Notes under the pieces: model-generated
The model's database searches: none
Seen by the model: the letters and a program-made list of their open reading frames with translations, nothing else
What the model was told of the DNA's origin: nothing
Part shown: positions 2,356 to 59,057 of the stretch, one piece after another
How the letters are laid out: each line of letters starts with the position of its first letter
Numbering within the stretch: the stretch's first letter is position 1
Translations under genes and position numbers: made by a program
Assembly (NCBI GenBank): GCA_043727115.1
Contig: JAYSZA010000043.1
Location: forward strand, 975 to 64,974
Direction of reading: 5' to 3'
Source of the DNA: Candidatus Saccharimonadota bacterium
Lineage (GTDB): Bacteria > Patescibacteriota > Saccharimonadia > Saccharimonadales > SZUA-47
DNA: 64,000 bases

Positions 2356-3159
2356 ATGAGTGAGCAACCTATCCTAGACCCTATACTCACACAAGATATG
2401 CCCAGCCAAATATATCCAGAGGTAACATCTGATGCACTCTTGCCGGCCGAGACCGCCAACTACCAAGGTAATTGGTTTAATTTGCAGCACGTCCGCATGC
2501 AAAGCCCCAATTTTGAAAATAAGTTAGTTGCCTTTATAGGGCGACATATCGATTCACTTACACCCGGGCAATCCAGGTCGTCTCTAGATAAGCCAGAAAA
2601 CTTTCAGACACATTACCAGTCACAGCTCAACCAGTTTAATGCCAACCTGGAACGCACTTACTCGCTAGTACACTACGGCAAAGCGGCAGACATAGGAGGC
2701 ACATCTTTGGCTGCCCTAGGCCACGGTAAAATCGGGCAGCCGGGTACAGTTTATAGCGACGGCATAACCAAGACGGAACAACCGTTAACCGACAGACAAA
2801 AAGATATTATCGCCGGACATGAGGCTTATCACGGTATGGTTGATGCCCAAGGTTCTGCTAGTGCAGAAGTAAAAAGTGGTTTCGACTGGGAAGTTTTTAA
2901 TGTCTTGGTTGATAGTGGCAGTGTCGTACAGCCTAGCTACTTGCGCGAGTCAGATGAACTGCTGGCACGCATGGCGCAGTTCAAGAACTACTTTGGTATG
3001 AGTGCTAATGAGCAATTTACCACTGAACACCTTGCTCACATTAGGCAACATTATGTTGATGATACTAGCTTAGATAACGGTATCTCACTTATGCTCAATA
3101 TCGTCACTCCAAACACTGAGGCAAGGTTTGTGGAGCTTATGAACGAGCTGCCGGTCTAA
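2356..3159 (+). CDS. hypothetical protein with HExxH motif (putative Zn-metallopeptidase-like)
   Basis: 267 aa with no signal peptide. It contains IIAGHEAYHGMVD (HExxH). No other family-defining motif was recognised by eye. Confidence 0.55.
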   Translation: MSEQPILDPILTQDMPSQIYPEVTSDALLPAETANYQGNWFNLQHVRMQSPNFENKLVAFIGRHIDSLTPGQSRSSLDKPENFQTHYQSQLNQFNANLERTYSLVHYGKAADIGGTSLAALGHGKIGQPGTVYSDGITKTEQPLTDRQKDIIAGHEAYHGMVDAQGSASAEVKSGFDWEVFNVLVDSGSVVQPSYLRESDELLARMAQFKNYFGMSANEQFTTEHLAHIRQHYVDDTSLDNGISLMLNIVTPNTEARFVELMNELPV

Positions 3160-55125: not shown

Positions 55126-55854
55126 ATGAGGGTACCAGCAAAGAATGTGTTGAAAATGCGTCGCTCTGTTTTTGTGCTATTTGTTCTAATTACGCTACTG
55201 GTAGTAGGCATAAACCCTAGTTTTGAACAGGATACACCACAGGTAGGGCCACCAGTCGCCGTATTATCTGATTCTGTAATCGCAAGTGAGCTAGCAATTG
55301 ATGTATTGGAGCGACTAGAAGTTAAGGGCAGGGCGCCAAAAACCGGTTATTCCCGAAGTGAATTTGGCGATGGATGGGCTACTGTTGGTGGCTGTGATAT
55401 GCGTAATATTATGCTCGCCCGCGGTATGACGGAAGTAGAACTAGCGACAGATAATTGTGTGGTGCTGAGCGGCACGCTCAATGACCCATACACAGGTACA
55501 GTAATTTCTTTCGTGCGCGGTAGTACTACTAGTAGTCTTGTGCAGATTGACCATGTGGTTGCGCTGAGTGATAGTTGGCAAAAGGGTGCGCAGAGTCTGG
55601 ATGCAGATACGCGCCTGCGTCTAGCCAATGACTCATTAAATTTACTTGCAGTTGATGGTCCAACAAATCAGGAAAAAGGCGACGGAGACGCAGCTACTTG
55701 GCTCCCGCCCAACAAAGCATTCAGATGCCAGTATACTGCACGCCAAATAGCTGTGAAGTCGAAATATAGTTTGTGGGTGACAGAAGCAGAAAAGTCCGCC
55801 ATGAAAAGGGTACTAAATGGTTGTGGAGAACAGGTATTGCCGGTACTAAGTTGA
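55126..55854 (+). CDS. secreted/membrane-anchored HNH-type nuclease (DUF1524 / GmrSD-C-terminal-like)
   Basis: N-terminal signal anchor RRSVFVLFVLITLLVVG. His-Me finger region QIDHVVALSDSW...NLLAVDGPTNQEKGD. Confidence 0.7.
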   Translation: MRVPAKNVLKMRRSVFVLFVLITLLVVGINPSFEQDTPQVGPPVAVLSDSVIASELAIDVLERLEVKGRAPKTGYSRSEFGDGWATVGGCDMRNIMLARGMTEVELATDNCVVLSGTLNDPYTGTVISFVRGSTTSSLVQIDHVVALSDSWQKGAQSLDADTRLRLANDSLNLLAVDGPTNQEKGDGDAATWLPPNKAFRCQYTARQIAVKSKYSLWVTEAEKSAMKRVLNGCGEQVLPVLS

Positions 55855-57311
55855 CTAATTCTAGTGAACCCAAAAGAAAAATAATTCATCCGTCTTGGTT
55901 GATTGCTTGGGTGAGTATTGGGATTATTGCCGGGACATATCTGTCGCTATTCTGGTCTGGATTTTCTGGTACTGAGTGGATTGTGTGTAGTTTCTGTTTG
56001 GGGCTAGTTGGATTTATTAACAAACAATTTTTCGGTGTGTTAATGGTGTTGTTTGCGGGGCTTGGTTTCGGGCTCTGGCGAGGAGGTTTAGAGATACAAA
56101 AACAACATGGTTTTGAAAAGTATCTGGGCACGGAAGTGCAAATTGTTGGAAAAGTTGGCGAAGACCCGAGCTTTGACACAGAGGGCGATATACGCATGAA
56201 GCTAGAGAACGTATTGGTGGATAATGAGCCAGTAGGCGGCAAGGTTTGGGTGTCTATAAATGACTCGAATGTTATAAAGCGGTCAGACATTATTGCTGTT
56301 GAAGGAAAAATAACGGAAGGTTTCGGAACGATTCCGGCTGCTCTTTACCGAGCTAGACTAGTTCGAATTGAACGCCAGGATTATGTTGATGTTGGTCGAG
56401 ACGCGCGTGACTCCTTTGCTGGCGGAATACGCACAAGCATTCGCGAACCAGAAGCATCGTTAGGAGCCGGATTCTTAGTGGGCCAAAAGACTACTCTTCC
56501 AGAAAGGTTAGGAAATGATTTACGGCTACTCGGACTAACTCACATCGTTGTTGCCAGTGGCTATAATCTAACAATTCTAATACGTTTTGCTAGGCGATTT
56601 TTTGAGAAAATATCTAGATTCACAGCTCTTGCAGGATCTTTCACCTTAGTATATGGGTTCCTGCAGATAACTGGTGCTACTCCATCAATGTCGCGCGCAT
56701 CATTAATTGCGGGAATTAGTTTGCTTGCTTGGTATTTTGGTCGCAAGTTACACCCTGTCGTACTGTTATCGTTTTCTGCGGCAATCACGGTCATAATTAA
56801 TCCTTCATATGCATGGGGAGATATAGGCTGGTTACTGTCATTCGCATCATTCATCGGAGTGATTATGTTTGCGCCCTTACTGCACGTGTACTTTTGGGGT
56901 GACAAAAAAGCGGGAAACATCAGACAGGTATTTATCGAAACAGCGTCCGCGCAACTACTAACACTTCCAATCATTGCATATGTCTTTGGACAATATTCAC
57001 CGCTGGCATTGCTAGCGAATGCATTGGTTCTGTCGTTTATACCACTTTCTATGGCTTTGACTGCTGTCGCGGGAGTGGCGGGACTAACCTTTCCAACCAT
57101 CGTTGCAGAAATCATTGGTTTACCTGCAGAGTTAGTTCTTCGATATATTACGACAGTCGTTAACTCTTTGGCGCAACTACCTCTTGCGAGTTCGGAGATT
57201 GTTTTTTCAACGACCACAGTATTAGTTAGTTATATAGTGATTGTCGTTGGGATGGTTTACATGTGGCGCAGAACTGGGTACGAATTCAGGAGCTACAACA
57301 TCATTGAGTGA
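55851..57311 (+). CDS. comEC: ComEC/Rec2 DNA internalisation channel (DUF4131 + competence domain; no C-terminal metallo-beta-lactamase domain)
   Basis: Competence-domain signature LLGLTHIVVASGYNLTIL...ITGATPSMSRASLIAGISLLA. The protein ends at ~490 aa without an MBL domain. The likely start is TTG 55851, overlapping the upstream stop (TTGA). The ORF track begins at ATG 55773, which lies inside the upstream gene. Confidence 0.8.
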   Translation: MTNSSEPKRKIIHPSWLIAWVSIGIIAGTYLSLFWSGFSGTEWIVCSFCLGLVGFINKQFFGVLMVLFAGLGFGLWRGGLEIQKQHGFEKYLGTEVQIVGKVGEDPSFDTEGDIRMKLENVLVDNEPVGGKVWVSINDSNVIKRSDIIAVEGKITEGFGTIPAALYRARLVRIERQDYVDVGRDARDSFAGGIRTSIREPEASLGAGFLVGQKTTLPERLGNDLRLLGLTHIVVASGYNLTILIRFARRFFEKISRFTALAGSFTLVYGFLQITGATPSMSRASLIAGISLLAWYFGRKLHPVVLLSFSAAITVIINPSYAWGDIGWLLSFASFIGVIMFAPLLHVYFWGDKKAGNIRQVFIETASAQLLTLPIIAYVFGQYSPLALLANALVLSFIPLSMALTAVAGVAGLTFPTIVAEIIGLPAELVLRYITTVVNSLAQLPLASSEIVFSTTTVLVSYIVIVVGMVYMWRRTGYEFRSYNIIE

Positions 57312-57416: not shown

Positions 57417-59057
57417 GTGAAGTATATCGCTTCAATTTTCATTATTTCAGTCTTTAGCCTAGCGATATTTCTATACCCTCCCGTAACTGTTGCTGCAGTT
57501 TCTGAAAACCTAGTTATTATGCAACTGCAAACAGCCGGAGCCGTTTCTGGCACCTTGAATGAAGAAGTTATAGTGCTTTATAACCTTTCGGCAGCGGATA
57601 TCAATATCTCTAACTGGTGCCTGCAAGACAGTAGTGCTTCAAATGGTGTGACTTTTAATGATCTAGCTTGTACGGTTCCAGTTGATACACAAACACAACT
57701 CTGGGCCGCGTCAGGTGGTTATGTTAGCTTTGCTACGTCTGAATTCATGACAAAAAACCCCGCTTTTACTCCGGATTTTATTTTCAGTGCAGGCATAGCT
57801 GCATCCGGTGGGCACATGATACTAGTTGACGAGAATAAGCAAGAAATTGACAGGGTATCTTGGGGTACGGCGGTTCAAATCAATGGTATCTTGCCGGCAA
57901 TAAAACATACGGAAGGAAAAGTACTAAGTCGTGATTCATTGGCACTGCAGCTGGACACAGATATCAATTTGGTAGATTTTAGTTCTAGGCCGTTATTAAA
58001 TCCAATTGTGTCCGGAGTTTACGAGGTAGAGATAGTTGTCGATACATGTTTAAATATCCCAGATGTTCAACTTGAAGTGCCGCAAGGCTATATGGTTGAT
58101 GCAGATGGTGTTTGCATTGAGGATTTCTGCCCTAACATTGACGAGCTACAGATTGTTGCGCCGGAAGGTTACGAAAAGATTAATGGTGCAGTGGACTGTA
58201 CTCTAATACCGCTTGAAGACGCAATACTATTTATTACAGAACTGGTTGCCAATGCACCATCCGATGATAAGGGGCAAGAGTTTATTGAATTCTACAATCC
58301 ACAAAAATACGCAGTTGATTTAGAGGGCTATAGGCTACAAGTTGGTCCAGGGTTCACTAAGGAATTCGTATTTCCTCATCAAAGTATCGCCGCAGGGCAG
58401 TATCTAGTATTTGAGGACTCTGTAACTAAAATTGTTTTGCCAAATACAACCGGAGTAGAGCTAAGACTAGTTGCACCAGCAGGCAATATAGTAAGCGAGA
58501 GTCCCGTTTATAGTAACGCTAACGATGATGCGTCTTGGGCCTTAGTTGAAGACCAGTGGATTTATACAAATCAAATTACGCCTGGAGGGCCAAATAAACC
58601 CTACTTGGAGCCAGTAGAAGATGAAGTGACTGGTGTCACAAGCGTGCAAGCACCATGTCCGGCAGGTAAATACCGCAACCCAGAAACAAATCGCTGCCGC
58701 ATTATAGAAACAGCGGTATCACAGCTGACACCGTGCGATGAGGACGAGTATAGGAATACCGATACTAACCGTTGCCGAAAAACACCTGTAGTCTCCTCAC
58801 TGTCCTCATGCCCAGAGGGACAGGAAAGAAATCCTGAGACAAATCGCTGCCGTAAAGTAAGCGTGCTCGGAGCATCACTAGATGAAATTCCTACAGTTAC
58901 AGATGTTGCAGTAGAAAATAAAGCTGGGCAGATAAATTGGCTGGTTATTGCCGTAGCTTTGTCAGGAACATTAGCATATATCACTTATGAATGGCGCCGT
59001 GAGCTGGGGCAGAAACTGGTTCTAGTTAAACGCCGCTTTGCCGGTTTTGTGAGATAA
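57417..59057 (+). CDS. cell-surface protein with two lamin-tail domains, three Cys-loop repeats and C-terminal TM anchor
   Basis: Signal peptide. LTD 1 VIMQLQTAG...EEVIVLYNLSAADINISNWCLQ. LTD 2 ITELVANAPSDDKGQEFIEFYNPQKYAVDLEGYRLQVG. Three repeats C-x4-[YE]RN[PT][ED]TNRC-R at 58656-58853. C-terminal TM segment WLVIAVALSGTLAYITY then RRELGQK. Confidence 0.75.
   Translation: MKYIASIFIISVFSLAIFLYPPVTVAAVSENLVIMQLQTAGAVSGTLNEEVIVLYNLSAADINISNWCLQDSSASNGVTFNDLACTVPVDTQTQLWAASGGYVSFATSEFMTKNPAFTPDFIFSAGIAASGGHMILVDENKQEIDRVSWGTAVQINGILPAIKHTEGKVLSRDSLALQLDTDINLVDFSSRPLLNPIVSGVYEVEIVVDTCLNIPDVQLEVPQGYMVDADGVCIEDFCPNIDELQIVAPEGYEKINGAVDCTLIPLEDAILFITELVANAPSDDKGQEFIEFYNPQKYAVDLEGYRLQVGPGFTKEFVFPHQSIAAGQYLVFEDSVTKIVLPNTTGVELRLVAPAGNIVSESPVYSNANDDASWALVEDQWIYTNQITPGGPNKPYLEPVEDEVTGVTSVQAPCPAGKYRNPETNRCRIIETAVSQLTPCDEDEYRNTDTNRCRKTPVVSSLSSCPEGQERNPETNRCRKVSVLGASLDEIPTVTDVAVENKAGQINWLVIAVALSGTLAYITYEWRRELGQKLVLVKRRFAGFVR

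Follow-up and report, generated by a model that had tools for sequence, protein, structure and literature searches.

We analysed a 64,000-nucleotide stretch of DNA (the window; positions 975 to 64,974 of contig JAYSZA010000043.1, assembly GCA_043727115.1, from a Candidatus Saccharimonadota bacterium), which encodes a membrane protein with two LTD domains (the LTD protein) and, between these and its membrane anchor, three short tandem repeats with two cysteines each. We conclude with high confidence that the repeats form a stalk of disulfide-stapled two-Cys hairpins. With low to moderate confidence, we propose that this stalk doubles as a putative multivalent binding array, for which DNA is the leading candidate ligand; the reading as a whole, an adaptor-like array on a hairpin stalk with DNA as its favoured partner, is tentative and falls somewhat short of an even chance. 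It is well supported that the unit comprises ~26 residues, namely a 14-residue hairpin (C-x2-G-x2-R-N-P-x-T-N-R-C) followed by [R/K] and a flexible linker rich in Ala, Ser and Thr, and that the three copies make up a beads-on-a-string stalk between two immunoglobulin (Ig)-like LTDs and the C-terminal membrane anchor. We do not regard the motif as new in kind: it is a variant of the 2-cysteine adaptor motif of giant viruses and, more broadly, probably of the single-disulfide β-finger class.

Three hairpin repeats in the stalk of the LTD protein

The first-pass annotation had placed three tandem Cys-loop repeats at 58656-58853, and both its peptides and these coordinates are exact (codons C414-R479 of the open reading frame (ORF) 57417..59057). 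Much of its description holds as well: the two cysteines of each repeat are 13 residues apart (i and i+13 in all three), the repeats stand between the second LTD and the membrane anchor (after LTD2, whose strands run to ~384, and before the transmembrane (TM) helix at 508-525), and they are rich in Arg and Asn (3 Arg and 2 Asn per 15 amino acids (aa)). The spacing, given as ~24 aa, is approximately right, with measured start-to-start distances of 26 and 25 aa and linkers of 11 and 10 aa. The expression "basic knobs" fits in part, since the units are weakly basic but the net charge is +3, -1 and +1 for their 16-aa cores and -1 for the stalk as a whole (aa 412-508).

The motif C-x5-RN-x2-TNRCR occurs three times in the LTD protein, whereas 2e-9 occurrences per protein are expected from its composition and none of 200,000 shuffles of the protein contained it. 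With a hidden Markov model (HMM) of the unit, the next-best six-frame ORF of the whole window reached 7.9 bits. A resemblance that arose by chance or as a low-complexity artefact can be discarded in view of these shuffles and of the thousands of homologues that keep the motif. Nor are the three repeats a recent DNA repeat, because the copies share 24-30 of 45 nucleotides pairwise and encode most of their identical amino acids by different codons (8/9, 8/12 and 5/9 between pairs of copies).

Both AlphaFold models, of the full-length protein and of the stalk, fold each unit into one two-stranded β-hairpin, with strands at motif positions 5-7 and 14-16 joined by the loop N-P-E-T-N-R. Confidence in the hairpins is moderate, with a predicted local distance difference test score (pLDDT) of 55-79 when the whole protein is modelled and of ~80 when the stalk is modelled alone. 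The linkers are of low confidence and the predicted template-modelling score (pTM) of the stalk model is 0.27, hence the beads-on-a-string picture.

By the positive-inside rule, we infer that the stalk repeats are extracytoplasmic. Both cysteines are kept in 1429/1429 complete units matched by the unit HMM, the number of cysteines per full-length protein is even in 206 proteins and odd in 17, and the Cys spacing within units is fixed whereas the linker length varies. The gene tables of the cultivated Saccharibacterium S. epibionticum include DsbA (class II essential) and VKOR. Cysteine retention, even counts, fixed spacing and the presence of DsbA/VKOR make one intra-unit disulfide per repeat plausible, so that the single disulfide loop proposed for each repeat in the first-pass annotation stands as a plausible deduction from such data. 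Alternatively, cysteines of adjacent repeats (C-x12-C-x12-C-x12-C) might chelate zinc or another metal and form no disulfides at all, as the regular Cys-to-Cys spacing within units and across many linkers, most commonly 13, could suggest, together with the cytoplasmic location of the viral homologues described below, where disulfides are less expected. We regard metal binding as very improbable given the extracytoplasmic location and the presence of DsbA/VKOR, linkers that vary from 10 to 16 aa against a fixed intra-unit spacing, the existence of proteins with an odd number of units and of single viral units, and the lack of a CxxC or His ligand pattern. Giant viruses are moreover known to encode Erv1-type oxidases, which counts further against it. 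An Erv1-type oxidase is listed in the table of a study of nascent ranavirus DNA (PMC8734342).

The repeats are the most conserved part of the protein

Conservation was assessed in an alignment of 108 close orthologues and in a phylum-wide set of 82 species representatives. Among the close orthologues, column entropy is 0.6-0.8 bits in the repeats, compared with 1.4-1.9 bits in the LTDs and 1.5-2.3 bits in the linkers, the juxtamembrane segment and the TM helix, and 16 of the 33 invariant columns fall within the repeats. Invariant residues include C414, R420, T424, R426 and C427 in repeat 1 and C440, R446, T450, N451, R452 and C453 in repeat 2. The individual repeats remain distinguishable from one another across orthologues (e.g. 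"CDEDEY" in repeat 2 only), and the duplication must therefore be old. The repeats are the most conserved part of the LTD protein, old copies kept by selection.

The same holds at phylum scale. Overall identity among the 82 representatives, which are full ORFs from the genomes found with the DNA pattern described below, is ~25-35%; of their six invariant columns, five belong to the membrane-proximal repeat and one to LTD2. Copy number ranges from 2 to 6 (mode 4). A special conservation of the membrane-proximal repeat was rejected when judged by score: all copies score about equally (43-46 bits), and this repeat is the best one in 29 of the 82 proteins.

A database scan for the motif, as suggested in the first-pass annotation, found it recurring across Saccharibacteria LTD proteins, and the repeats are conserved in both the 108 orthologues and the 82 representatives. 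A query with the full-length protein returned 1427 proteins, and 117 of the best 120 of these carry strict-motif units (2-6 each). The bacterial consensus, taken from 265 and 410 units, is C-[PDKA]-[EA]-[GD]-[QEK]-[EYF]-R-N-P-[ED]-T-N-R-C-[RK], and the most frequent period is 26 aa. R7, T11 and R13 of the unit are invariant across the family and N8, P9 and N12 nearly so; the linkers are rich in A, S, T and L, end in L-x-P and measure 10-16 aa. Searched against 1.84 billion cluster representatives, a 30-column profile of the unit matched 2301 proteins at E<=1e-3, of which 798 passed E<=1e-30. Among species-representative genomes, at least 120 loci match a degenerate DNA pattern that encodes RNPETNRCR, and 71 of the 80 genome matches listed bear Saccharibacteria-lineage labels, the cultivated strain TM7i included.

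The repeat is tied to an LTD-repeats-TM architecture. An LTD was found in all 82 phylum-wide repeat ORFs, and the LTD HMM matches 101 of 125 motif ORFs, the rest being mostly truncated or split, with a few full-length but divergent. The sole variant without an LTD (P0208) keeps the TM anchor and has the neighbourhood of its LTD-containing relatives. When the C-terminal 154 aa were used as query, 83 proteins were returned, from Saccharibacteria wherever named; all were of <=268 aa, and neither a full-length orthologue nor an identical protein was among them, which may be due to how candidates are collected. A separate family of small proteins (100-270 aa) was rejected as an explanation of these matches, which are contig ends or split genes. 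Two loci look like pseudogenes or assembly errors: in one metagenome-assembled genome (MAG) position 2 of repeat 1 is an in-frame TAA (L002, 5935-5937), so that the LTD part and the repeat-plus-TM part are separate ORFs, and in L001 (5006-6735) the 3' half of the LTD gene has been joined by a deletion to a truncated comEC.

The unit as a variant of the giant-virus 2-cysteine adaptor

In viral contigs, the RNPETNRCR pattern had one match, IMGVR_UViG_638275973 (335,593 bp). A phaeovirus-type ORF (L130, 1221-2003), whose start reads ...KPCKQGWVRNPETNRCRKC, contains a single motif copy, PCKQGWVRNPETNRCRKC, whose loop is identical to that of the bacterial units and which precedes a DUF6940 domain. 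The looser pattern C-x2-G-x3-NP-x-TGRC occurs at 120 or more viral loci, mostly giant-virus MAGs and often in 2-6 tandem copies, against ~10 matches expected by chance, a rough estimate given that the size of the collection is not stated. The viral consensus, from 199 units, is KKCPEGKV[LI]NPKTGRC[IV]K with K/P-rich linkers. The Pfam family 2C_adapt (PF08793) is matched by 10 of 107 viral pattern ORFs at E<=0.01 (best E=7.8e-8), and its model core aligns on the viral "NPxTGRC". Carriers of the viral module include Pol X-type polymerases (10-12 ORFs), protein kinases (10), ABC1 kinases (10), helicases, DNA ligases and peptidase-like proteins.

Several comparisons connect the two groups. The Saccharibacteria unit HMM matches 240 viral units above 15 bits (maximum 44.6) and none in a reversed-sequence control (maximum 5.5), and hhalign aligns the bacterial and viral unit alignments with a probability of 98.4% (E=7.6e-15). 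Near-identical copies occur across groups, such as viral CPEGQYRNPETGRCKKI and bacterial CPEGQERNPETNRCRKV; viral CPEGQYRNPETGRCKKI and bacterial CPEGKVINPDTGNCVNV each resemble the consensus of the opposite group. When the stalk model was compared with viral structure models using Foldseek, giant-virus proteins came first, with Feldmannia virus and Marseillevirus entries at E ~7e-4 to 9e-4; EsV-1-207 is among the matches in BFVD. The core C-[P]-x-G-[KQ]-x-x-N-P-x-T-[GN]-R-C, its two cysteines 13 residues apart, is common to both groups, as is a tandem arrangement with a period of 22-46 aa, and each group is found by the profile of the other.

They differ at position 12 (Gly in 2C_adapt, Asn in the bacterial unit), at positions 6 and 10 (Val/Lys versus Glu) and at position 15 (Ile/Val versus Arg/Lys), and their linkers are K/P-rich in viruses and A/S/T-rich in Saccharibacteria. 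The 2C_adapt domain spans ~35 residues and ends in a basic, Gly-containing extension, V-x-K-x-G-x-[IL]-G-[KR]-K-[IL], which is present in a subset of viral units only (e.g. ...GRCVKKDGVIGKKI) and absent from Saccharibacteria units, where [RK] and an A/S/T/L linker come after the second Cys. The viral module is intracellular and fused to varied proteins, whereas the bacterial one is extracytoplasmic and confined to a single LTD-repeats-TM architecture.

Against this kinship speak the partial circularity of the hhalign comparison, for which viral units had been gathered with a pattern derived from the bacterial motif, the lack of any 2C_adapt match at E<=10 (threshold 22 bits) in the window protein, its stalk or its single units, and the scarcity of such matches in the orthologues (7/82, all weak, best E=0.058). 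We conclude that the Saccharibacteria repeats are, as is well supported, a bacterial extracytoplasmic variant of the 2-cysteine adaptor module and that they are outside the Pfam 2C_adapt family as currently defined; we call them a variant and not a member because of the circular sampling, the missing matches and the missing extension.

The Pfam description of 2C_adapt, as quoted in PMC6163548, presents it as virus-encoded and fused to kinases or OTU-like peptidases, and in the papers that we found the 2-cysteine adaptor is treated as specific to viruses and its function as unknown. Four copies are contained in P64, a DNA-condensing protein of ascoviruses (PMC6163548), and a kinase with a 2-Cys adaptor was recovered on nascent ranavirus DNA (PMC8734342).

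Comparison with family libraries and known folds

The first-pass annotation did not recognise the repeats as a named motif. No Pfam or NCBIfam model reached its threshold for them when the whole protein, the stalk and single units were scanned; relatives nonetheless exist, namely the giant-virus 2-cysteine adaptor hairpin and a "TNF receptor-like" assignment by DPAM on the corresponding segment of an orthologue. The latter comes from the annotation of the S. epibionticum orthologue SEML1_0775 (Wang et al. 2023, Table S2, PMC10633639), in which two Ig-like domains are followed by residues 476-510 and 523-543 labelled "TNF receptor-like" with a DPAM score of 0.941. That residues 476-543 correspond to the repeats rests on position: the segment follows LTD2, and in a 630-aa homologue (P0445) the repeats lie at 475-566.

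Sub-threshold matches of the repeats recur for TNFR_nem, CBM_14, EGF_4, NCD3G and DUF4215; a PorB match was set aside as irrelevant. TNFR_nem (PF25314) scores 7.2 bits with the whole protein and 25.0 bits with the stalk alone, below its cut-off of 27, and has sub-threshold matches in 63/82 orthologues at model positions 18-34 (best E=3.5e-6). Against the PDB, Foldseek gave no significant match to the stalk model (best E=0.11), the top entries being megalin/LDLR, R-spondin furin repeats and CD320. The profile of the bacterial unit matched only the actinohivin segment "GTVRNAQTGRC" (E=0.33), a ricin-B hairpin that we take as coincidental, and the profile of the viral unit matched no PDB sequence. 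With TNFR-like and furin-like β-fingers the units share a small β-hairpin, for which a single disulfide is predicted, a C-x2-G-x-[YF] start and a stalk-like placement by the membrane; TNFR-type domains, however, have 2-3 disulfides each and stack into a rod, whereas the Saccharibacteria units have two cysteines and flexible linkers. At the level of fold, the repeats probably belong to the TNF-receptor/furin-like "β-finger" class.

CBM_14, a six-Cys domain of ~53 residues, is matched only at model positions ~26-49, repeatedly, so that its scores are sums of partial matches. We rejected membership of the repeats in this family, as one hairpin of the six-Cys domain is matched, probably spuriously. 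By such summed partial matches, 48 of the 107 viral ORFs pass the CBM_14 gathering score (e.g. L239 3970-5505 and L165 4799-6262, among loci L131-L250), and the name "Chitin-binding type-2" on viral tandem-repeat proteins, e.g. CeV A0A0N7G7L5, is probably a misannotation.

Protein layout and gene neighbourhood

The features of the LTD protein and of the genes upstream are listed in Table 1. In order, the protein comprises a signal peptide, LTD1, a pair of two-Cys motifs of another type, LTD2, the three hairpin repeats, a juxtamembrane segment, the TM helix and a cytoplasmic tail. Public assemblies contain an identical protein (P0084). Its AlphaFold model, built on an alignment of 108 sequences, has a mean pLDDT of 86.5. 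The N-terminal signal carries what may be a VAA|VS-type cleavage site, judging from its residues. Pfam LTD (PF00932) matches in two stretches (E=6e-24, 84.9 bits, cut-off 34.3), and the top Foldseek matches of the modelled protein are the tails of lamins A/C, B1 and B2 with template-modelling scores (TM-scores) of 0.65-0.74, normalised to the target. Both LTDs are thus bona fide, with a lamin-like Ig fold.

Table 1. Features of the LTD gene and its upstream neighbours (window coordinates)
Feature	Residues (aa)	Coordinates	Strand	Basis or remark
GmrSD_C/DUF1524 His-Me finger nuclease, upstream of comEC		55126..55854	+	Pfam, E=1.3e-18
comEC (Competence and DUF4131), upstream of the LTD gene		55773..57311	+	Pfam
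LTD-repeat gene		57417..59057	+	546-aa type I membrane protein; ORF listing
Signal peptide or signal anchor	1-28	57417..57500	+	Hydrophobic helix at aa 2-19 in AlphaFold model
LTD1	~30-195	57504..58001	+	Pfam LTD; model β-strands span aa 32-191
Second two-Cys motif type, two copies, between the LTDs	211-233 and 238-261	58047..58199	+	Sequence
LTD2	~265-395	58209..58601	+	Pfam best stretch 271-359; model strands aa 272-384
Repeat 1, CPAGKYRNPETNRCR	414-428	58656..58700	+	Unit HMM 52.7 bits; strands 418-420 and 427-429
Linker 1, IIETAVSQLTP	429-439	58701..58733	+	pLDDT <50 at aa 432-437
Repeat 2, CDEDEYRNTDTNRCR	440-454	58734..58778	+	Unit HMM 41.1 bits; strands 444-446 and 453-455
Linker 2, KTPVVSSLSS	455-464	58779..58808	+	High entropy, 1.97 bits
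Repeat 3, CPEGQERNPETNRCR, membrane-proximal	465-479	58809..58853	+	Unit HMM 50.0 bits; strands 469-471 and 478-480
Juxtamembrane segment	480-505	58854..58931	+	Poorly conserved; entropy 2.29 bits; pLDDT <50 at aa 483-502
TM helix	~506-525	58932..58991	+	Model helix 508-525; hydrophobic sequence
Y-x3-E-W-R motif, cytoplasmic end of TM helix	521-527	58977..58997	+	Conservation in orthologues

The inter-LTD motif copies, CLNIPDVQLEVPQGYMVDADGVC and CPNIDELQIVAPEGYEKINGAVDC, follow the pattern C-x-N-[IL]-x-G-x-Q-x3-P-x-G-Y-x5-7-C and are distinct from the stalk repeats. Their cysteines (C211, C233, C238 and C261) are invariant or nearly so among the close orthologues, and the motif has no match in Pfam scans; the window protein has two copies, and homologues have three (L069) or four (L024). 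The juxtamembrane segment is disordered in the AlphaFold model. At the cytoplasmic end of the TM helix, Y521, E525 and R527 are invariant in close orthologues and Y524 and W526 are kept in >=90% of sequences. This YEWR motif, still recognisable phylum-wide, may be a docking or sorting signal; the cytoplasmic tail begins with it and is basic and, in the model, helical. Family-wide, the distance from the last repeat Cys to YEWR is held at 38-47 aa.

In several arrangements the LTD gene lies 0-2 genes from comEC, the DUF1524 nuclease, ruvC/ruvA or a pilin-like gene. The order DUF1524 nuclease - comEC - LTD is found in the window and in four further loci (L001 and L004-L006), comEC - yebC - LTD - ruvC - penicillin-binding protein (PBP) - ruvA in L002 and S. 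epibionticum, comEC - pilin-like gene - yebC - LTD - ... - ruvC in the 801-kb contig L251, and LTD - ... - ruvC - ruvA - ruvB - ... - recA in L003. In L251, the pilin-like gene (N_methyl; 2606-3139) is a neighbour of the competence-pilus type. The Pfam scan detected no metallo-β-lactamase domain in the ComEC of the window; the separate DUF1524 nuclease might stand in for this missing nuclease domain. At 24 of the 120 loci listed (L074 2395-4829, L127 3444-5886 and 22 others), which come from another group of genomes, the LTD gene is divergent and its neighbours encode a pyridine nucleotide-disulfide oxidoreductase, a protein of 80 aa and a conserved membrane protein of 233 aa. A DsbD/CcdA-like redox neighbour was dropped from consideration, its DsbD_2 match of 23 bits being below the cut-off and not reproduced in a homologue.

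What the stalk may bind

In the mechanism that we propose, DsbA/VKOR would close a disulfide at the base of each hairpin (C414-C427, C440-C453, C465-C478), and the stabilised module would then display its invariant Arg/Asn/Thr loop. The array would hold the LTDs off the membrane, through the wall zone, and would present a multivalent, low-affinity "adaptor" surface to a repetitive partner near the membrane. The candidate partner is extracellular DNA, which might be captured and handed to ComEC or to surface nucleases; a wall polymer or a protein are alternatives. We favour binding over a pure spacer because the invariant residues R7, T11 and R13 are polar or charged. DNA is put forward because of the neighbouring DNA genes, the viral fusions to DNA enzymes, P64, the kinase on nascent DNA and the absence of a ComEA annotation from the S. 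epibionticum gene tables. The DNA or ligand contact suggested in the first-pass annotation would find some indirect support in the viral fusions to DNA enzymes and in the DNA-handling genes nearby.

The company that LTDs keep elsewhere is similar: bacterial and archaeal LTD proteins are extracellular and membrane-associated and occur in a DNA-related context, as does the window protein, and LTDs are fused to extracellular nucleases or, in haloarchaea, to a ComEC-type metallo-β-lactamase domain (PMC5118699). The window protein differs from them in that it lacks a catalytic domain and has a hairpin stalk and YEWR anchor, which our searches found almost only in Saccharibacteria-labelled genomes. 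ComEA could be a functional analogue of the whole protein only, being likewise membrane-anchored, extracytoplasmic and, in part of the phylum, comEC-adjacent. It has a helix-hairpin-helix (HhH) fold and an N-terminal anchor, whereas the LTD protein matches no HhH family in the Pfam scan, has a C-terminal anchor and is required for fitness where comEC is not.

A number of findings weigh against DNA as the ligand. Among the 48 species loci in which the neighbourhood could be assessed, comEC is directly upstream of the LTD gene in 19 and missing from the neighbourhood in 28. In the only transposon sequencing (Tn-seq) available, published for S. epibionticum, the LTD orthologue SEML1_0775 (class II essential, core family, Patescibacteria-enriched) is scored as essential, with calls of NE/ES/ES and normalised reads going from 451 to 104 to 13, whereas comEC is NE/NE/NE with ~12,000 reads throughout; deletion of comEC abolishes transformation and leaves the cell viable. 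Because the LTD gene is scored as essential while comEC is dispensable, the LTD protein would act beyond ComEC-dependent uptake, unless the insertions exert polar effects on ruvC, PBP and ruvA downstream (each NE/GD/ES); the NE status of the upstream yebC makes strong polarity less likely. The epithet "DNA-uptake-associated" in the first-pass annotation thus suits some lineages, those with comEC directly upstream, and sits poorly with these fitness data. Charge is also unfavourable: arrays carry +6 per 100 aa in Saccharibacteria compared with +19 in viruses, the window units are near-neutral (+3, -1, +1) on a stalk of -1, and the conserved Glu at unit positions 3, 6 and 10 is not expected of a DNA binder. 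Finally, the viral module is also found on kinases and peptidases and may be a general protein adaptor.

Two other explanations have to be weighed against the binding array. The hairpins might merely stiffen and protease-proof an inert spacer that takes the LTDs across the wall zone, their conserved polar residues serving to fold a coreless mini-domain through the turn formers N, P, T, N and G and intramodule salt bridges (E6-R15, E10-R7/R13). Such a spacer would suit the position of the repeats between ectodomain and TM helix, their flexible A/S/T linkers, a copy number that varies from 2 to 6 across species, the distance of 38-47 aa kept to the membrane, the near-equal scores of the copies (43-46 bits, the membrane-proximal one best in 29/82) and the stalk-type character of the nearest, non-significant Foldseek neighbours (furin-like, EGF and LDLR repeats). 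We nevertheless consider it unlikely, though a serious contender, since the repeats are conserved far above the folded LTDs, down to residues that are normally free in EGF/TNFR-type modules, and since the same loop occurs in intracellular viral proteins, where a stalk is unneeded. Tandem short hairpin repeats are also typical of wall-binding modules, choline-binding repeats being an example, and the array could instead bind an envelope polymer, as a peptidoglycan or teichoic-type anchor, or dock a conserved protein partner, for instance a component of the pilus, a PBP or a molecule on the host surface. A partner of this sort would explain a fitness role independent of ComEC (an orthologue of class II essentiality beside a dispensable comEC) and would agree with the position of the repeats at the wall, the PBP genes adjoining in some lineages and the partial matches of bacterial and viral units to the C-terminal hairpin of CBM_14. 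The CBM_14 matches, however, are the probably spurious partial sums described above, no wall-binding family was matched in the Pfam and NCBIfam scans, polarity on ruvC, PBP and ruvA could account for the Tn-seq call, and the viral homologues reside inside eukaryotic cells, which have no peptidoglycan; polymer or partner binding accordingly keeps a minority share of our confidence.

The preferred reading, a multivalent array with DNA as leading candidate, can be extended to a bolder one that we find doubtful, in which the hairpin would be an unrecognised nucleic-acid-contacting module common to Saccharibacteria and giant viruses, and the LTD-hairpin-TM protein of Saccharibacteria the missing extracellular DNA receptor, an analogue of ComEA. 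If this were true, the ComEA analogue would also feed nuclease-based nucleotide scavenging, which would explain the fitness need where comEC is dispensable, and in giant viruses the module would hold Pol X, ligase, helicases and kinases on the viral DNA.

Significance

Saccharibacteria, obligate epibionts that do not synthesise nucleotides, are capable of natural transformation, and few of their envelope proteins have been characterised. Our literature search found no paper describing the repeats or the function of the LTD protein, and no report of an extracellular tandem stalk in a phylum-wide, probably essential Saccharibacteria protein or of its link to giant viruses. A dedicated profile of the repeat is warranted, and "chitin-binding" annotations of viral proteins are flagged as probably spurious. 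As the hairpin repeats are the most constrained part of the LTD protein, its function probably sits in them, and they offer precise targets for mutagenesis (the Cys pairs, R7, T11 and R13) in a genetically tractable organism. An extracellular counterpart in cells could help to work out what the module does in bacteria as well as in viruses.

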